DNA of 64,000 bases from an uncultured Chloroflexia bacterium (GTDB taxonomy: Bacteria; Chloroflexota; Limnocylindria; QHBO01), in assembly GCA_963827475.1 (NCBI GenBank), contig CAWHAZ010000005.1, positions 736,001 to 800,000 on the forward strand, given 5' to 3'. The translations under genes were made by a program, and so were the position numbers. This document shows positions 44,056 to 64,000 of this stretch, piece by piece (positions within the stretch are counted from its first letter, which is position 1; each line of letters starts with the position of its first letter). The notes below the pieces were generated by a model. That model was not told the origin of the DNA and searched no databases. It was given only the letters and a program-made list of their open reading frames with translations.

Positions 44056-45615
44056 ATGCGCCGCCTGAGCGCGGCGGCCGCGCTGCTCCTGGCGGCCCTC
44101 ACCCTCATCCTCGTCACCGTTCCCGCCGTCCAGCCCGCGGCCGCCGGCGATCGTCCCCTGCGCTACCTGGCCGGTCCGGCCGGGACGCTGGACCCCGCGT
44201 TCATCTCGAGCGCCAGCGATGTGCAGCTGCTCCTCCAGCTGTACGCCGGCCTGACCAGGATCGCGGAAGACGGGTCGGTCTATGCCTCCCTGGCGGAGGA
44301 CTGGGCGGTGAGCGACGAGGGCCGGACCTACACCTTCCGCCTCCGGGACAGCCTCGCGTTCAGCGACGGCTCGCCGCTCACCGCGGAAGACGTTCGCCGC
44401 TCGTGGCTCCGCGTGCTGGATCCGGCTACCGGGGCGCTGGCCCCCGACGTCCTCACCGTCATCGAGGGCGCGGGCGCCTGGCGATCAGGAGCCGGATCGG
44501 CGGAGGACGTGGGGATCGAGGCACCGGACGAGCGGACCCTCGTCGTCCGTCTCGAGCATGCCGCCAGCCACTTCCCGGCGCTCGCCGCCACGCCCACGGC
44601 CTTCGTCGTGCCGTCGGCGGCGGACGCGTCGTCCGACTGGCAGACGGTGGACGGCTTCGTCGGCTCCGGCCCGTACGCCGTGGAGCGGCTCGACGGGCTG
44701 GACCTCGTCCTCGCGGCCAATCCGGAATACGTGGCCGGTCCGCCGCCGATCGACGAGATCGTGTGGGTGTCCGAGGTCGAAACCAGCGCCCCCGAGGCGT
44801 TCGTCGCCGAGCAGGTGGACCTCGTCAACGTCTTCTCGGGCGATGCGTCGTGGATCCGCTACGACCGCGCGCTCGGACCGTTCCTCCACGAGGCCGCATC
44901 CCTGAGCGTGCAGTACTTCGGATTCGACACGACCCGGCCGCCCTTCGACGATCCGCGGGTGCGGCGGGCGTTCGCCCTCGCCCTCGACCGACCTCGCCTG
45001 GTCGAGCTGTCATCCGGCGCGGCCGCCACCGCGGCCACCAGCCTCGTTCCGCCGGCCCTGTGGCCCGACGGGGCGCCGACCGACGAGGATGCGGATCCGG
45101 ATGCGGCCCGCGACCTGCTGGTCGAGGCCGGGTACGCCTCCGGCGCGGAGCTGGGGACGATCACGGTCAATGCCAACGGCCTGGACGTCGGGCCGGCGGC
45201 CGAGGTGTGGCGCGAGGAGCTCGGGGTCGACATCGCCATCGAGTCCATGGAGTTCGGGGACTATCTCAGCCTCCTGCCACAGCGTCCGCCACCGATCTTC
45301 ACGATCAACTGGATCACGGACTACCCGTCGCCGTACGCGCTGTACGGCCTCCTCCTGCTCCCGGACGCGGCATCGAACTACGGGCACTGGACCGATGACG
45401 AGTTCGTCGAGCTGATGGAAACGGCCGCGCGGACGACGGACCCGGCGGAGCAGCGCGAGGCGTATCTCGCGGTCGAGGACCGGGTCGACGCCGAGGCGCC
45501 GGTGATCACCTGGTCGTGGGACGCATCGCACTGGCTCGTCCGCGACGGGCTGAACGGGGTCGGCACCCTCACCGTCGGGCTGCTCGACTTCGGGAGGGTG
45601 TCGTGGGCCGACTGA
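44056..45615 (+). CDS. Peptide ABC transporter substrate-binding protein (family 5)
   Basis: Signal peptide; 'LDPA', 'LAE.W.VS..G.TYTF.LR...FSDG.PLTA.D', 'GSGPY', 'PFDD.RVRRA'. Confidence 0.9.
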   Translation: MRRLSAAAALLLAALTLILVTVPAVQPAAAGDRPLRYLAGPAGTLDPAFISSASDVQLLLQLYAGLTRIAEDGSVYASLAEDWAVSDEGRTYTFRLRDSLAFSDGSPLTAEDVRRSWLRVLDPATGALAPDVLTVIEGAGAWRSGAGSAEDVGIEAPDERTLVVRLEHAASHFPALAATPTAFVVPSAADASSDWQTVDGFVGSGPYAVERLDGLDLVLAANPEYVAGPPPIDEIVWVSEVETSAPEAFVAEQVDLVNVFSGDASWIRYDRALGPFLHEAASLSVQYFGFDTTRPPFDDPRVRRAFALALDRPRLVELSSGAAATAATSLVPPALWPDGAPTDEDADPDAARDLLVEAGYASGAELGTITVNANGLDVGPAAEVWREELGVDIAIESMEFGDYLSLLPQRPPPIFTINWITDYPSPYALYGLLLLPDAASNYGHWTDDEFVELMETAARTTDPAEQREAYLAVEDRVDAEAPVITWSWDASHWLVRDGLNGVGTLTVGLLDFGRVSWAD

Positions 45616-60232: not shown

Positions 60233-62881
60233 ATGCCCCTCGAGACCTACCGGTCCAAGCGCGACTTCGGCAAGACGCCTGAGCCTGCGGGCGCCGTTCC
60301 GGTCGAGACCAGCGGCCGCTTCGTCGTCCAGCGGCATCGGGCTACCCGGCTGCACTACGACCTCCGGCTGGAGATGGACGGCGTGCTCGCCAGCTGGGCC
60401 GTGCCGCGCGGTCCGACCCTGGACCCGGACGAGCGCCGCCTCGCGATGAAGACCGAGGACCACCCGATCGAGTACCTCGAGTTCGAGGCGGTGATCCCAA
60501 AGGGCCAGTACGGCGCGGGGGACATGATCGTCTGGGACTGGGGCACGTTCGAGCCGGAGGAGACCGATGACCCGGCGGCCGCGGTGGCCGCCGGCGAGCT
60601 GAAGTTCCGCCTCCACGGCGAGCGGCTGCGCGGCCGCTTCACCCTGGTGAAGACCCGGGGCCGGACCGATGAGCGGGGACGGACCGAAGGCGGCGACCCG
60701 TGGCTCCTCATCCACAAGCGCGACGAGTACGCGGAGGACGGCTTCGACGCCGAAACCCAGCCGCGGAGCGTCATGACCGGCCGGACCAACGACGAGCTGG
60801 CCGCGGGGCGTGAGCCGCGATTCGAGGCGTCGCCGCCGGCGCCGGAAGGGCCGCTCGACCTGTCGGCCGCCCGGGAGGCGCCATTCCCCGAGTTCATCCC
60901 GCCCATGCTCGCCACGGCGGGGGAGCATCCGTACGAGGACGCGAACTGGCTCCACGAGGTGAAGTGGGACGGCTACCGGGTCCAGGCCGTCGTCCGTGGC
61001 GGGAAGGCCAGGCTGTGGACCCGGAACCGGGCCGACGGGGCGATGTACTTCCCGGAGCTCGCCGGGCCGCCAACCTGGATCGACGCCGCGGAGGCGGTGG
61101 TGGATGGCGAAGTCGTCGCCTTCGGGACCGATGGCCAGCCGAGCTTCTCCGCCCTCCAGGAGCGGACCGGGCTGATGGGCCTCGAATCCCGGACCGGACG
61201 ACGGCGCCCACGCACCAAATCTGACGGTGCGACGCCACCTGAGCGGAGCGCGCCGGCACCGATCATCTACCAGGCCTTCGACCTGCTGTACCTCGATGGG
61301 CGGTCGCTCTTCGACGTCCCCCTCGAGTCCCGCAAGCGGCTGCTCCACCGCGTGCTGCGGCCGCACCCGCTGGTCCGGTTCGCCACCCACGTCGCCGGCG
61401 AGGGATCCGCGTTCCTCGACGCCGCCCTGGCCGGCGGCCTGGAGGGCGTCGTCGCCAAGAGGCGGACAAGCCGTTACCGCCCGGGCGAGCGCTCAGCGGA
61501 CTGGGTGAAGATCAAGATCAAGGCGGAACAGGACGTGGCGGTCATCGGCTGGCTGCCGCGACAGGGGAGCACCGACGACCTCGGTTCGCTGATCGTGGCG
61601 GTGATGAGCCCCGACGGACTGGTGCACGCCGGCCAGGTGGGCAGCGGGCTTGGCGGGAAGGTCCGTCGTGAGCTGTTGAACGCGTTCGCGGACAGCGCCC
61701 GTTCGGACCCGCCGGTCGCGACCGCGCCTGCGCTCCCTGAAGCCCGGTGGGTCGAGCCACGGATCGTGGCCCGCGTGGAGTTCGCCGAGTGGACGCACGA
61801 CGACCTGCTGCGGCAACCGACGTTCCTCGGCGTCCAGGTCGATCGCGACGTGGACTCGACAGTCCGTCAAGATCCCCCCGTGCGCGCCCGCCGCTCGACC
61901 CCGAAGGCACCGCCTGCGTCGCCGGGAGCGGCGCCGGGCGCGAGCGACGAGGAGCAGGCGGCCCTCGACGCGCTGGAGAAGGAGGGCAGCTGGGAGATCG
62001 GTGGGCAGGTCGTCCGCCTCACCAACCTGGACAAGATCCTGTTCCCGGCCCGCGACGATGATCCCGGCCCCCTCACGAAACGTGACCTCGTCCGCTACTA
62101 CACCTCCGTCGGCGAGTTCCTCATCCCGCACCTCCGCCACCACGGCCTGACCCTCCAGCGCTTCCCCGACGGGGTCGAGCGCAAGGGCTTCTGGCAGAAA
62201 GACCTCCCGTCCCACACACCGCCATGGATCAGCCGCCGGGAGCTGACCGACAGCGAGGGCACAAAGCAATACGTCGTCGTCGACCGGGTGGCGACCCTTG
62301 CCTGGCTGTCCCAGGAAGCGGCCATCGAGCTCCATCCATGGACGGCGACGGTCGAGGCCCCGGACCAGCCGCGGTTCGCGCTCATCGACATCGACCCCGG
62401 CGAAGCCACGACGTGGGAGGAGGTCCTCGTACTTGCTCGCCTGTTCCGCGCCGCGCTCGATCATCTCGGGGTCATCGGACTGCCCAAGACCACGGGGAAG
62501 CGCGGCATCCAGGTGTGGGTCCCGATCGCCGACCACTATTCATTCGACCAGACCCGCGACTGGGTCGAGGGGCTGTCCCGGGCGGTGGGCCAGACGGTCC
62601 CCGACCTGGTCAGCTGGGCGTGGACCAAGCGCGACCGGCGTGGTCGGGCCCGTCTCGACTACACCCAGAACGCGCCGATCCGGACCCTCGTGGCGCCCTA
62701 CAGCGTGCGGCCGTCGCCCGGTGCGCCGGTGTCGGCGCCGATCACCTGGGACGAGCTCGAGGACCCCGAGCTCGGGCCCGAGCGGTGGACGATTCGCACC
62801 CTCCCGGCCCGCCTGGCGGAGGTCGGCGACCTCTTCGCTCCCGCCACGACGCTGCGCCAGGAGCTGCCGCCGCTCGGTTGA
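60233..62881 (+). CDS. ligD: NHEJ DNA ligase D (phosphoesterase-ligase-polymerase)
   Basis: PE 'YR.KRDF..TPEP...H.ATRLHYD.RLE'; ligase 'EVKWDGYR', 'EGVVAK'; Pol 'TN.DK', 'KT.GKRG', 'PYSVR'. Confidence 0.95.
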   Translation: MPLETYRSKRDFGKTPEPAGAVPVETSGRFVVQRHRATRLHYDLRLEMDGVLASWAVPRGPTLDPDERRLAMKTEDHPIEYLEFEAVIPKGQYGAGDMIVWDWGTFEPEETDDPAAAVAAGELKFRLHGERLRGRFTLVKTRGRTDERGRTEGGDPWLLIHKRDEYAEDGFDAETQPRSVMTGRTNDELAAGREPRFEASPPAPEGPLDLSAAREAPFPEFIPPMLATAGEHPYEDANWLHEVKWDGYRVQAVVRGGKARLWTRNRADGAMYFPELAGPPTWIDAAEAVVDGEVVAFGTDGQPSFSALQERTGLMGLESRTGRRRPRTKSDGATPPERSAPAPIIYQAFDLLYLDGRSLFDVPLESRKRLLHRVLRPHPLVRFATHVAGEGSAFLDAALAGGLEGVVAKRRTSRYRPGERSADWVKIKIKAEQDVAVIGWLPRQGSTDDLGSLIVAVMSPDGLVHAGQVGSGLGGKVRRELLNAFADSARSDPPVATAPALPEARWVEPRIVARVEFAEWTHDDLLRQPTFLGVQVDRDVDSTVRQDPPVRARRSTPKAPPASPGAAPGASDEEQAALDALEKEGSWEIGGQVVRLTNLDKILFPARDDDPGPLTKRDLVRYYTSVGEFLIPHLRHHGLTLQRFPDGVERKGFWQKDLPSHTPPWISRRELTDSEGTKQYVVVDRVATLAWLSQEAAIELHPWTATVEAPDQPRFALIDIDPGEATTWEEVLVLARLFRAALDHLGVIGLPKTTGKRGIQVWVPIADHYSFDQTRDWVEGLSRAVGQTVPDLVSWAWTKRDRRGRARLDYTQNAPIRTLVAPYSVRPSPGAPVSAPITWDELEDPELGPERWTIRTLPARLAEVGDLFAPATTLRQELPPLG

Positions 62882-62944
62882 GCACAAACGAAGGCGCCAC
62901 GGCCGATGTGATGACCGTGGCGCCTCCCCCCCGGGTGGATTAGA

Positions 62945-62974
62945 CCGTGCGTCCGATAATCGGACGCGGAACGG
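62945..62974 (-). terminator. GC-rich hairpin downstream of the micropeptide (also downstream of convergent ligD)
   Basis: GCGTCCGAT-A-ATCGGACGC perfect inverted repeat, extendable by CCGT/ACGG. Confidence 0.65.
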
Positions 62975-63013
62975 TTAACGGGGCCAACCACCCCCGGTAG
63001 TCGCGGAGCTCAT
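62975..63013 (-). CDS. Candidate 12-aa micropeptide MSSATTGGGWPR
   Basis: GGGAGAA-6nt-ATG RBS, TAA stop, hairpin immediately 3'; divergent from an HTH-TPR regulator. Confidence 0.5.
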   Translation of the reverse strand: MSSATTGGGWPR

Positions 63014-63209
63014 GTGGTCTTCTCCCGTCGGTTTGTGGCTCACCCAGACGAGTGAGTGCCACGCACCCAGACACTCGCAGGCAGAAGTCCGCCGCGACAA
63101 TGGCCCGGGGGTACCGTCCCGCTCCACTGGGGCCAGTACTTTCCTCCGCCGATTTCGGCGGTGGAACCGGTCAAGTAGGGCTTGCCCGACCGGTGTAGAC
63201 TCACGGCCA

Positions 63210-64000
63210 ATGCCGCGGACCCGGACCCCGGTAGATTCGACCGAGCAGGACGCCGCGCTCGAACTGGCGCGGCGTGTTGGTGAGCGGATCCGGGTTGCCC
63301 GCCGCCGCGCCGGACTGACCCAGACCCAGCTGGCCGGCGATCGGTACACCAAGGCCTACATCAGCGCCCTCGAAACCGGGATCACCCGCCCGTCGATGGT
63401 CGCCCTCAACTACGTCTCGGAGCGGCTCGGCCTGCCGGCCAGCCACTTCCTCGGCGATACGAACCCGACATGGACCCGGCTGGAAGTCGACATGCGGCTC
63501 GCCGCCGGCGACTGGGCCCGGGCCGCCGATGGCTACCGCACGTTATTGGGCGAGGCGCTCGGCGACGTGGCGCGGGCCGAGGTCCTGCGAGGCCTGGCCG
63601 AGGCGGAATCCCGACAGGACCACGGACGCGAGGCGATCGCCGCCGCCGCGGAGTCGGCCCGGCTGTTCGGCGCCCTGGGCCGCGCCGCGGACGAGGCGCT
63701 GGCCCGCTACTGGCTGGCATACGGCACCTACCTGACGGACAACGAGGCGGATGCACGGACCCAGCTCCAGGCGCTGCTCGGCCAGACCCGCGAGGGGCTC
63801 CGAGTGGAGCCGGAGTTCGAAATGCGCGTCCTCACCGCCCTCGCCGCGGTCGAGTCACGAGTGGGGGAGCACGCGCGGTCGCTGGCGTATCTCGAGGAGG
63901 CGCGGGGACTGGCTGACGACCTCGACGACCGGCGGCGCGCGACATTCCTGTTCAACCTGGCCATCAGCTACCGCGAGACAGGGGACGTGGAGGCGGCCAT
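63210..64000 (+). CDS. XRE-HTH + TPR transcriptional regulator (RRNPP-like architecture); runs off window
   Basis: 'GERIR.AR..AGLTQ.QLA...YTKAYISALETG..RPS' followed by TPR-like helices; TAGACT 8 nt before ATG; absent from the ORF track because no stop lies in the window. Confidence 0.9.
   Translation, partial: MPRTRTPVDSTEQDAALELARRVGERIRVARRRAGLTQTQLAGDRYTKAYISALETGITRPSMVALNYVSERLGLPASHFLGDTNPTWTRLEVDMRLAAGDWARAADGYRTLLGEALGDVARAEVLRGLAEAESRQDHGREAIAAAAESARLFGALGRAADEALARYWLAYGTYLTDNEADARTQLQALLGQTREGLRVEPEFEMRVLTALAAVESRVGEHARSLAYLEEARGLADDLDDRRRATFLFNLAISYRETGDVEAA

Follow-up and report, generated by a model that had tools for sequence, protein, structure and literature searches.

The DNA analyzed here, called the window, is a 64-kb stretch of the genome of an uncultured soil Chloroflexota bacterium (G000:C5:736001-800000; genome G000 amounts to 1.92 Mb in seven contigs and is 90% complete). 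At its far end, an open reading frame (ORF) of 12 codons, pep1, stands head-to-head with the gene of a regulator that carries an XRE-type helix-turn-helix (HTH) and tetratricopeptide repeats (TPRs). Judging from comparisons with related genomes, the two are probably a peptide ligand and its receptor. A first-pass annotation had pointed to this pair as a candidate peptide-signaling module in a likely Chloroflexota host, and its account of the locus was confirmed by direct reading of the sequence. pep1 occupies positions 62975-63013 of the minus strand, with the ATG at 63013-63011 and the TAA stop codon at 62977-62975, and encodes MSSATTGGGWPR, of which the last eight to nine residues form the conserved core. 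The Shine-Dalgarno (SD) sequence GGGAGAA (63020-63026, minus strand) lies 6 nt ahead of the ATG. The regulator gene is divergent, with its ATG at 63210, 196 nt from that of pep1. Its first 263 codons are in the window (63210-64000, plus strand). It extends 511 nt past the window end, and the 434-aa protein was completed from the genome (contig C5, to position 800511). On the other side, pep1 is convergent with ligD, in which all four LigD domains were found with Pfam. The host was also named correctly, since the loci of 94-95% identity belong to Candidatus Limnocylindria/Chloroflexota.

The 64 kb of the window contain 20 ATG-initiated ORFs of 8-20 aa with a 4-mer SD match and seven with a 5-mer match; the pep1 ORF and its SD alone are not beyond chance. 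We regard pep1 as a real gene because it is conserved among relatives. The regulator was used to scan one-genome-per-species contigs, which gave 407 relatives, and the best 80 were kept. Nearly all of these are labeled Candidatus Limnocylindria, Chloroflexota or "uncultured Chloroflexia", and a few metagenome-assembled genomes (MAGs) are labeled otherwise. From 110 pooled loci, four with less than 350 nt of upstream sequence were removed and those with identical last 300 nt were merged, leaving 91 distinct loci. The upstream region was then filtered for opposite-strand ORFs of 8-70 aa with an SD and a C-terminal G-x-G-x(0-2)-[FWY]-P, the survey of homologous regulators that the first-pass annotation had proposed as a check. 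Matches were obtained on the opposite strand in 80 of the 91 loci, on the same strand in none, and downstream on neither strand. Dinucleotide-shuffled sequences gave five matches in 1820. Seven of the 11 misses were recovered by eye: one reads through a lost stop codon into 10 additional residues, another has an SD outside the pattern, four end in GGADFP and one in GGGPPPFA. Thus, a divergent small ORF, with the conserved ending G-G-G-(D)-W/F-P, is present in 87 of the 91 loci. The remaining four belong to homologues of 30% identity. The distance between the two starts is 164-202 nt in 83 loci and 322-338 nt in three. At least one of these three, L023, carries an additional gene in between: an XRE HTH gene of 104 aa, standing on its own, separates the propeptide gene from the HTH-TPR gene in one family of the class (L023, 1188-1502; by eye also L024 and L025), a three-gene version of the module.

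The pattern of nucleotide changes was then analyzed in the 45 loci whose ORF has exactly 12 codons. The start (44 ATG and one GTG), the length and the position of the stop (38 TAG, six TAA and one TGA) are preserved in all 45. Over codons 7-11 (G-G-G-W-P), the column entropies at codon positions 1, 2 and 3 are 0.03, 0.03 and 0.73. Pairwise single-base codon differences in frame were 2286 synonymous to 824 non-synonymous, whereas the other two sense frames gave 913:2708 and 818:2177. One antisense frame is also rich in synonymous differences (2588:1316), which is expected because the third positions coincide. The conserved start, SD and stop all belong to the minus strand. The SD block (TCTCCCG on the plus strand) is conserved across 14 same-genus loci; counts of SD conservation are not independent among the filtered loci, since the motif filter required an SD. 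This substitution pattern shows that the pep1 ORF is under selection as a peptide.

The presumed pep1 transcript has three hairpins, all on the minus strand. A single-sequence fold gave a 5'-leader hairpin at 63035-63062; its sequence differs among relatives, and the stem-forming segments recur as judged by eye, with pairs uncounted. An 8-bp hairpin (62949-62967) begins 8 nt past the stop codon, where a strong hairpin had been described in the earlier annotation. By eye, it is seen in 13 of 14 same-genus loci, with compensating U-A to C-G changes, and is missing in L013; RNAalifold paired this region otherwise. The third, a 15-pair hairpin with a T-rich tail (62890-62927), is the probable terminator of pep1, common to the convergent ligD. 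A terminator scan flagged it on the minus strand alone (one site versus 0.2 in shuffles), and 14 of its pairs are preserved in 13-14 of 14 same-genus loci. Since the T-rich tail is present only on the minus strand, the hairpin looks built for the small gene, with ligD sharing it, and the counter-explanation that it serves solely as the ligD terminator fails. On ligD's own strand (window 62881-62930), a strong hairpin is followed by a C-run, without a T-tract. In 62700-63400 and 62000-64000, the Rfam scan gave four matches, all far under the gathering scores, and the tRNA scan gave none. The promoter and terminator scan around pep1 found no sigma-70 consensus promoter.

RNA contigs 90-99% alike to the small ORF and the intergenic region were found in four rhizosphere libraries of one study (X1, 62699-63102; X3, 62000-63102; X7, 62808-63484). 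These were rejected as evidence of small-ORF expression: they carry neither strand nor level, coverage extends over every bin, those of ligD among them, and carry-over of DNA is possible. Two of the contigs, both from that study, end at 63102.

In the regulator, Pfam detects TPR_12 above the cut-off (E 5.4e-14). The AlphaFold2 model has a mean pLDDT of 88.1 and shows the HTH at residues 10-73, followed by 18 helices. Intact orthologues, 81-95% identical, are present in 15 of the 17 genomes from the same genus, and matches at E <= 1e-10 were obtained in 34 of 41 relatives. A profile of 20 orthologues was compared with solved structures. The top match is PlcR (2qfc, E 4.2e-9), over the HTH part only; SinR, ComR (6.6e-5), Rgg (4yv6, E 0.0065), RapH (2e-5) and RapJ (3.3e-3) are also matched. 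The RapH and RapJ matches span about 90 TPR residues (RapJ: 337-429) and are listed amid kinesin light chains and designed TPRs. In the Foldseek search, the PlcR-PapR-DNA complex appears at rank 23 (E 9.5e-8), and Rap-Phr of pLS20 and Rap of phi3T come lower. The architecture of the regulator is therefore that of HTH-type RRNPP receptors, but homology to them is supported only over the HTH, and the matches do not suffice to assign it to the RRNPP protein family. A co-fold of the TPR domain with the 41-aa propeptide of a long-form relative (score 0.15, mark 0.32) is evidence neither way.

The 87 divergent small ORFs exist in two forms, 46 short (12 codons) and 41 long (37-43 aa). The peptide of the window has no hydrophobic segment, as had been pointed out when it was described as lacking a signal sequence. 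In contrast, the long form begins with a basic N-terminus (consensus MRxxRIxRS), continues with some 20 hydrophobic residues and V-x-A, and closes with x-T-G-G-G-D-F-P-x(0-3) or a variant thereof (alignment A3). Signal peptides of the long forms were judged by rule, not by a predictor. Such a build would be that of a Sec-exported propeptide with the last 9-11 residues as its mature part. Within the long form, it is the polar core at the C-terminus that is conserved, rather than the hydrophobic stretch. The idea of a peptide-signaling module is thus supported by the conservation of the small ORF and by the 41 loci with the RRNPP propeptide build. When short and long forms were aligned as DNA, they matched at the SD, the ATG, the second codon and the core, and the only gap was an internal one of 81-84 nt. 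These alignments show that the short form corresponds to the long form minus the signal-peptide stretch, and that pep1 is homologous to the putatively secreted propeptides. In five long forms (L021, L082, L085, L091 and L095), a Cys directly follows the hydrophobic stretch (..V-A-A-C-S-N-G..), resembling a lipoprotein box. In these lineages, lipid anchoring of the mature peptide, or its cleavage by signal peptidase II, is conceivable.

To follow the two forms along the phylogeny, a quick maximum-likelihood tree of 88 regulators was used, three rows having been dropped because their estimated start ran into a stop. The short/long label requires two to three changes on this tree, against a shuffled mean of about 30. 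The short form occurs in three places: the genus of the window (16 rows), a clade of 30 rows, and a single row beside long-form sisters. This third lineage was confirmed with two further genomes, in which pep1 encodes MQHVTNGSGFPA. Rooting with two 30%-identity homologues as outgroup put the root inside the genus of the window on branches of 4.5 substitutions; it was distrusted because of these long branches. Hydrophobic N-termini were found in the small ORFs of all class-level (48-56% identity) and phylum-level relatives. Since all these relatives hold the long form, we read the changes as about three losses of the signal peptide, not as gains.

A six-frame search of genome G000 for the core gave one further match besides pep1, in an unlinked gene, pep2 (G000:C2:87417-87464; L112, 1118-1165). 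It encodes the 15-aa peptide MSTPSGATTGGGWPA, is preceded by the SD GAGGA, and contains the core ATTGGGWP. A pep2-type small ORF is present at this locus in 24 of 24 family-level genomes and in 10 of 10 further genomes; it was not found in the 25th locus fetched, a weak class-level match. The pep2 core is identical to the pep1 core of the same genome in eight of eight residues in each of six genera, whereas three to six of eight are shared between genera. Over 20 genomes, the mean identity was 7.35 of eight for the own genome versus 5.72 for cross-comparisons; this mean includes G003 with a wrong ATG ORF, and the GTG-start ORF of that genome has a matching core. Within a genus, some pep1/pep2 pairs differ by W versus F. 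The form of the two genes agreed in all 29 genomes compared (23 short/short, six long/long and no mixed pair). Without genomes G016 and G021, the numbers are 21 and six, with five genera at eight of eight. In a 30th genome, pep1 was not found within the locus fetched. Over 11-residue stretches, hydropathy peaks at no more than 1.01 in the short forms, compared with 2.22 or more in the long ones. pep2 lost its signal peptide in the same lineages as pep1.

The neighbors of pep2 are an EamA-family gene and a gene with E1_dh and Transket_pyr domains. The EamA transporter gene was considered as a peptide exporter and rejected, as this neighbor is not conserved among relatives. Upstream of pep2, three GTAAGC-type repeats 11 nt apart are conserved in all aligned loci, and their period suggests a binding site of the response-regulator type. 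The triple repeat has three more matches in G000, all within stretches spanned by long open frames. After pep2, a TATCAT element is located just ahead of the ATG of the E1-like gene, which would be thiamine pyrophosphate-dependent. This gene (G000:C2:87549-89836; L114, 1801-3749) is split over two frames in G000 and shortened in the few-contig assemblies G001 and G008. In 13 of the 18 loci from the same genus, it is uninterrupted over 648 codons or more in one frame, and it runs for 530 and 220 codons to the end of two shorter loci. The split probably reflects an indel introduced by long-read assembly, not a genuine interruption of the gene.

We also analyzed the distribution of the regulator beyond the class. 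When 301 genomes were sampled evenly over the phylum, 45 had a match at E <= 1e-15. These include 15 of 15 genomes of the window's family and eight of 15 from another family in the class, as well as 21 genomes from other families, in which the identity is 25-31%. Twenty distant loci were fetched, one of which had no match on re-check. Among the remaining 19, 13 carry an ORF of 26-32 aa with a signal-peptide-like N-terminus whose end lies within 300 nt upstream of the regulator; elsewhere in the distant loci, two such ORFs were found in 70 kb. Two conserved types can be told apart among them, divergent ORFs ending in ..GGH or ..PGWK and same-strand ORFs ending in ..GCC. Next to the four 30%-identity homologues of the class, a small signal-peptide ORF is present in all four loci, and three share an A-C-D-P..G.C core. 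Cores with two Cys (A-C-D-P..G.C) and endings in ..G-C-C or ..G-G-H were seen in L028, L030, L031 and L147-L166. This variety suggests several peptide "languages", some of them perhaps disulfide-bonded. A profile search against 1.84 billion representatives gave 237 clusters at E <= 1e-30. In the protein atlas, look-alike clusters with HTH_3 and TPR_12 (420-460 aa) occur most often in Actinomycetota, with 830 members, and in Candidatus Dormiibacterota, with 366, 177 and 100. As a lead only, this type of receptor may extend beyond Chloroflexota.

In an alignment of 83 intergenic regions, two blocks stand out between pep1 and the regulator. The first (63098-63145, strand not assigned) contains two boxes, CAATGrCCCnnnnGTAC and, about 20 nt further, GTACnTTCGG, and is the candidate operator of the regulator. 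After about 20 nt follows the second block (63169-63201, plus strand), GGTCAAnT..gcTTGCC and, about 8 nt later, GTAnACT, which lies 7-9 nt before the regulator ATG. No SD precedes this ATG, suggesting a leaderless mRNA; the second block probably serves as the promoter for a regulator mRNA with little or no leader. The box CAATGrCCC..GTAC has one other site in G000, before an aminotransferase-like gene at C4:23769. In this copy (G000:C4:23725-23790; L113), CAATGGCCC..GGTAC overlaps a TACACT element 7 nt ahead of the aminotransferase-like ATG. It could be a second site of the regulator; as it overlaps that gene's own TACACT element, we took it as a chance occurrence.

Tentatively, we read the pair as an RRNPP-like ligand-receptor module of Candidatus Limnocylindria, in which a leaderless peptide acts between cells. 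The ancestral gene would have encoded about 40 residues, consisting of a Sec-type signal peptide, a V-x-A cleavage-type site and a 9-11-residue core, x-T-G-G-G-(D)-W/F-P-x. In the genus of the window, the 81-84-nt stretch for the signal peptide would have been lost, leaving Met, one residue (mostly Arg, here Ser) and the core. pep2 would supply the same ATTGGGWP core to the regulator. The peptide is proposed to bind the concave face of the TPR superhelix and to alter the action of the regulator at the GTAC boxes, which would result in autoregulation. With less confidence, by analogy with the leaderless SIP/LCP peptides of streptococci, the peptide may leave the cell independently of Sec, or be released by lysis, and be taken up again by an Opp/Dpp-type permease. 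We infer binding, operator, autoregulation, export and re-import from these comparisons. Binding proteins of the Opp/Dpp family are encoded in G000, with 10 SBP_bac_5 matches, four of them at 137-239 bits. One such gene is in the window at 44278-45369 (239 bits), 18 kb from the module, and three more strong copies are located elsewhere.

Several observations weigh against this reading. Opp/Dpp-type binding proteins are a generic family, and no exporter gene is linked to pep1 or pep2 at either locus. Moreover, the pep1 peptide is hydrophilic and Gly-rich, whereas the streptococcal leaderless peptides are hydrophobic; because of this chemistry, passive or PptAB-like export is not obviously available. 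On the receptor side, the Pfam models HTH_3 and HTH_19 match at E 3-4e-4, slightly under their cut-offs, and none of the NCBIfam models scores above its own. With PlcR, ComR and Rgg, the sequence similarity is confined to the HTH. The closest fold in Foldseek is a generic TPR (LGN/Pins TPR domains at ranks 1-10, E about 1e-9), and the RRNPP matches in that search have low TM-scores (0.37-0.55). Since its promoter element differs from that of pep1, pep2 may answer to another regulator, and no regulon could be inferred from the searches of G000 with the pep1 box and the GTAAGC motif. Finally, the short form represents about three independent lineages, not 46 loci, as kin are not independent.

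It is conceivable, although we rather doubt it, that the same pair is cell-autonomous: after loss of the signal peptide the peptide would stay inside the cell as a private switch, the input being how fast the peptide is made relative to its loss by peptidases and growth dilution, for example in a feedback or bistable arrangement. Because the two unlinked genes lost their signals in the same lineages (23/6/0 in 29 genomes, about three lineages), the event looks like a change in the mode of the whole system and not like the decay of one gene. The short peptides without a hydrophobic stretch and the lack of a linked exporter fit retention, and, in the available part of a preprint, intracellularly expressed peptides drive cognate Gram-positive regulators (10.64898/2026.10.03.755986). 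However, leaderless streptococcal peptides are secreted without a signal, as far as the consulted part of PMC10518010 describes them. Thus, an absent signal does not prove retention, and what a receptor would gain from a ligand of its own cell is not evident. We consider it improbable that the peptide has another job, in the envelope, outside the cell or as a precursor for modification, with the HTH-TPR protein controlling its expression without sensing it. The conserved repeat element of its own in the pep2 promoter is consistent with such a role, as are the lipoprotein-box-like long forms (V-A-A-C) and the distant Cys-rich cores, which could cross-link. Nevertheless, no modifying enzyme or transporter is conserved beside pep1 or pep2, and a secreted function leaves the unchanged core after signal loss unexplained. 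The TPR domain, a peptide-binding fold, is intact wherever the peptide gene occurs, and the pairing of an HTH-TPR gene with a small peptide gene recurs across the phylum with unrelated cores.

A small membrane toxin with an XRE-type antitoxin or repressor is very unlikely. The long forms, of about 40 aa with one hydrophobic helix beside an XRE-family gene, do resemble some toxin-antitoxin layouts; yet the conservation resides in the polar core, the short form drops the hydrophobic part and retains the core, and the regulator has a TPR domain of 350 residues. Even harder to believe is that no peptide is made at all and that the conserved feature is an RNA element or a chance ORF. The 20 similar SD-bearing ORFs in the window, the highly structured transcript and the antisense synonymous excess would speak for this, but the core varies with a three-base period, and all 45 short ORFs agree in start, stop and length. 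In addition, the ORF has homologues in the C-terminal part of longer ORFs and in pep2, which lies amid different DNA, and there is no Rfam match. A ligand-receptor pair, acting between cells or within one, remains the reading that we consider probable.

This gene layout extends through a class of Chloroflexota that are abundant in soil and fresh water and have not been cultured. The class also offers a natural experiment, in which one receptor and its presumed peptide occur both in versions with a secretion signal and in versions that lack it; the change took place about three times, at both peptide loci together. The consequence of a public signal turning leaderless thereby becomes directly testable. 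The peptides are short and predicted to be unmodified, and the receptor lends itself to heterologous expression, so that the host need not be cultured. Should the cell-autonomous version hold, a quorum-sensing circuit would have become an intracellular switch in about three lineages of Limnocylindria. A ribosomal peptide of 12-15 residues would then be a genetically encoded second messenger, in sisters of lineages whose receptor listens to a secreted signal.

Among the characterized systems, PlcR-PapR and NprR-NprX of the Bacillus cereus group combine an HTH-TPR receptor with an adjacent gene for a peptide with a Sec signal, whose active part is at or near the C-terminus. This build matches the long form of the relatives. 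In contrast, the peptide of the window has no signal, and the genes are divergent, not tandem. The regulator is also larger than PlcR (434 aa with about 18 repeat helices, against 293 residues in the solved chain), and its similarity outside the HTH is that of TPRs in general. In Rgg-SHP systems, the receptor gene and the small peptide gene are divergent, and autoinduction depends on the peptide. The divergent layout of pep1 and the proposed logic of autoinduction are alike. SHPs are hydrophobic, exported by PptAB and processed by Eep, as the partly consulted literature has it; here, no PptAB or Eep genes are linked, and the chemistry of the peptide is the opposite.

RRNPP_detector, from which the working definition of RRNPP(A) systems was taken, was, according to the available part of its description, run only on Firmicutes and viruses (PMC10075063), and a structural phylogeny, in the part accessible, presents the RRNPP family as encoded by Bacillota (PMC12700828). 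Compared with such systems, the regulator of 434 aa falls within the receptor range of 250-500 aa and has a TPR-type peptide-binding domain and an N-terminal HTH, as seen in the profile, the sub-threshold Pfam matches and the model helices 10-73. A small peptide gene in the range of 10-100 aa is adjacent (12 aa, 196 nt off). A propeptide with a secretion signal is absent in the window, although the orthologous long forms have a signal-like segment, and the host is a member of Candidatus Limnocylindria, Chloroflexota, and not of the Bacillota, to which the literature consulted ascribes these systems, together with their mobile elements. Full-text searches of the literature, which do not extend to supplementary tables, found no report of an RRNPP-like system in Chloroflexota, and no full text naming Limnocylindria together with quorum sensing. 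A 2026 preprint, as far as its available part goes, describes a ComQ prenyltransferase homologue in Chloroflexota, which is a different type of system. Thus, an RRNPP-like gene layout, so far described only in Firmicutes, appears to be present in a class of Chloroflexota.

The closest parallel is RopB with the SIP/LCP peptides, a member of the Rgg branch of RRNPPA. In the part of PMC10518010 that was consulted, the leaderless 8-aa peptides encoded beside RopB are made in mature form, secreted and re-imported, and RopB homologues were sought in 129,001 genomes and 9,421 MAGs. As in that system, an ultrasmall ORF beside the receptor gene encodes what would be the mature peptide without a signal or propeptide, here Met, one variable residue and then the shared core, and the receptor is a cytoplasmic protein of HTH and helical repeats. 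Unlike the LCPs, which are hydrophobic and eight residues long, the pep1 peptide is hydrophilic, Gly-rich and 12 residues long, and the regulator is not a detectable homologue of RopB/Rgg beyond the HTH (4yv6, E 0.0065), as an LCP receptor would be. Whereas RopB-SIP/LCP belongs to Firmicutes, the pair described here belongs to Chloroflexota, its leaderless form appears to have been derived about three times from a Sec-type propeptide, and a second, unlinked gene encodes the same core.

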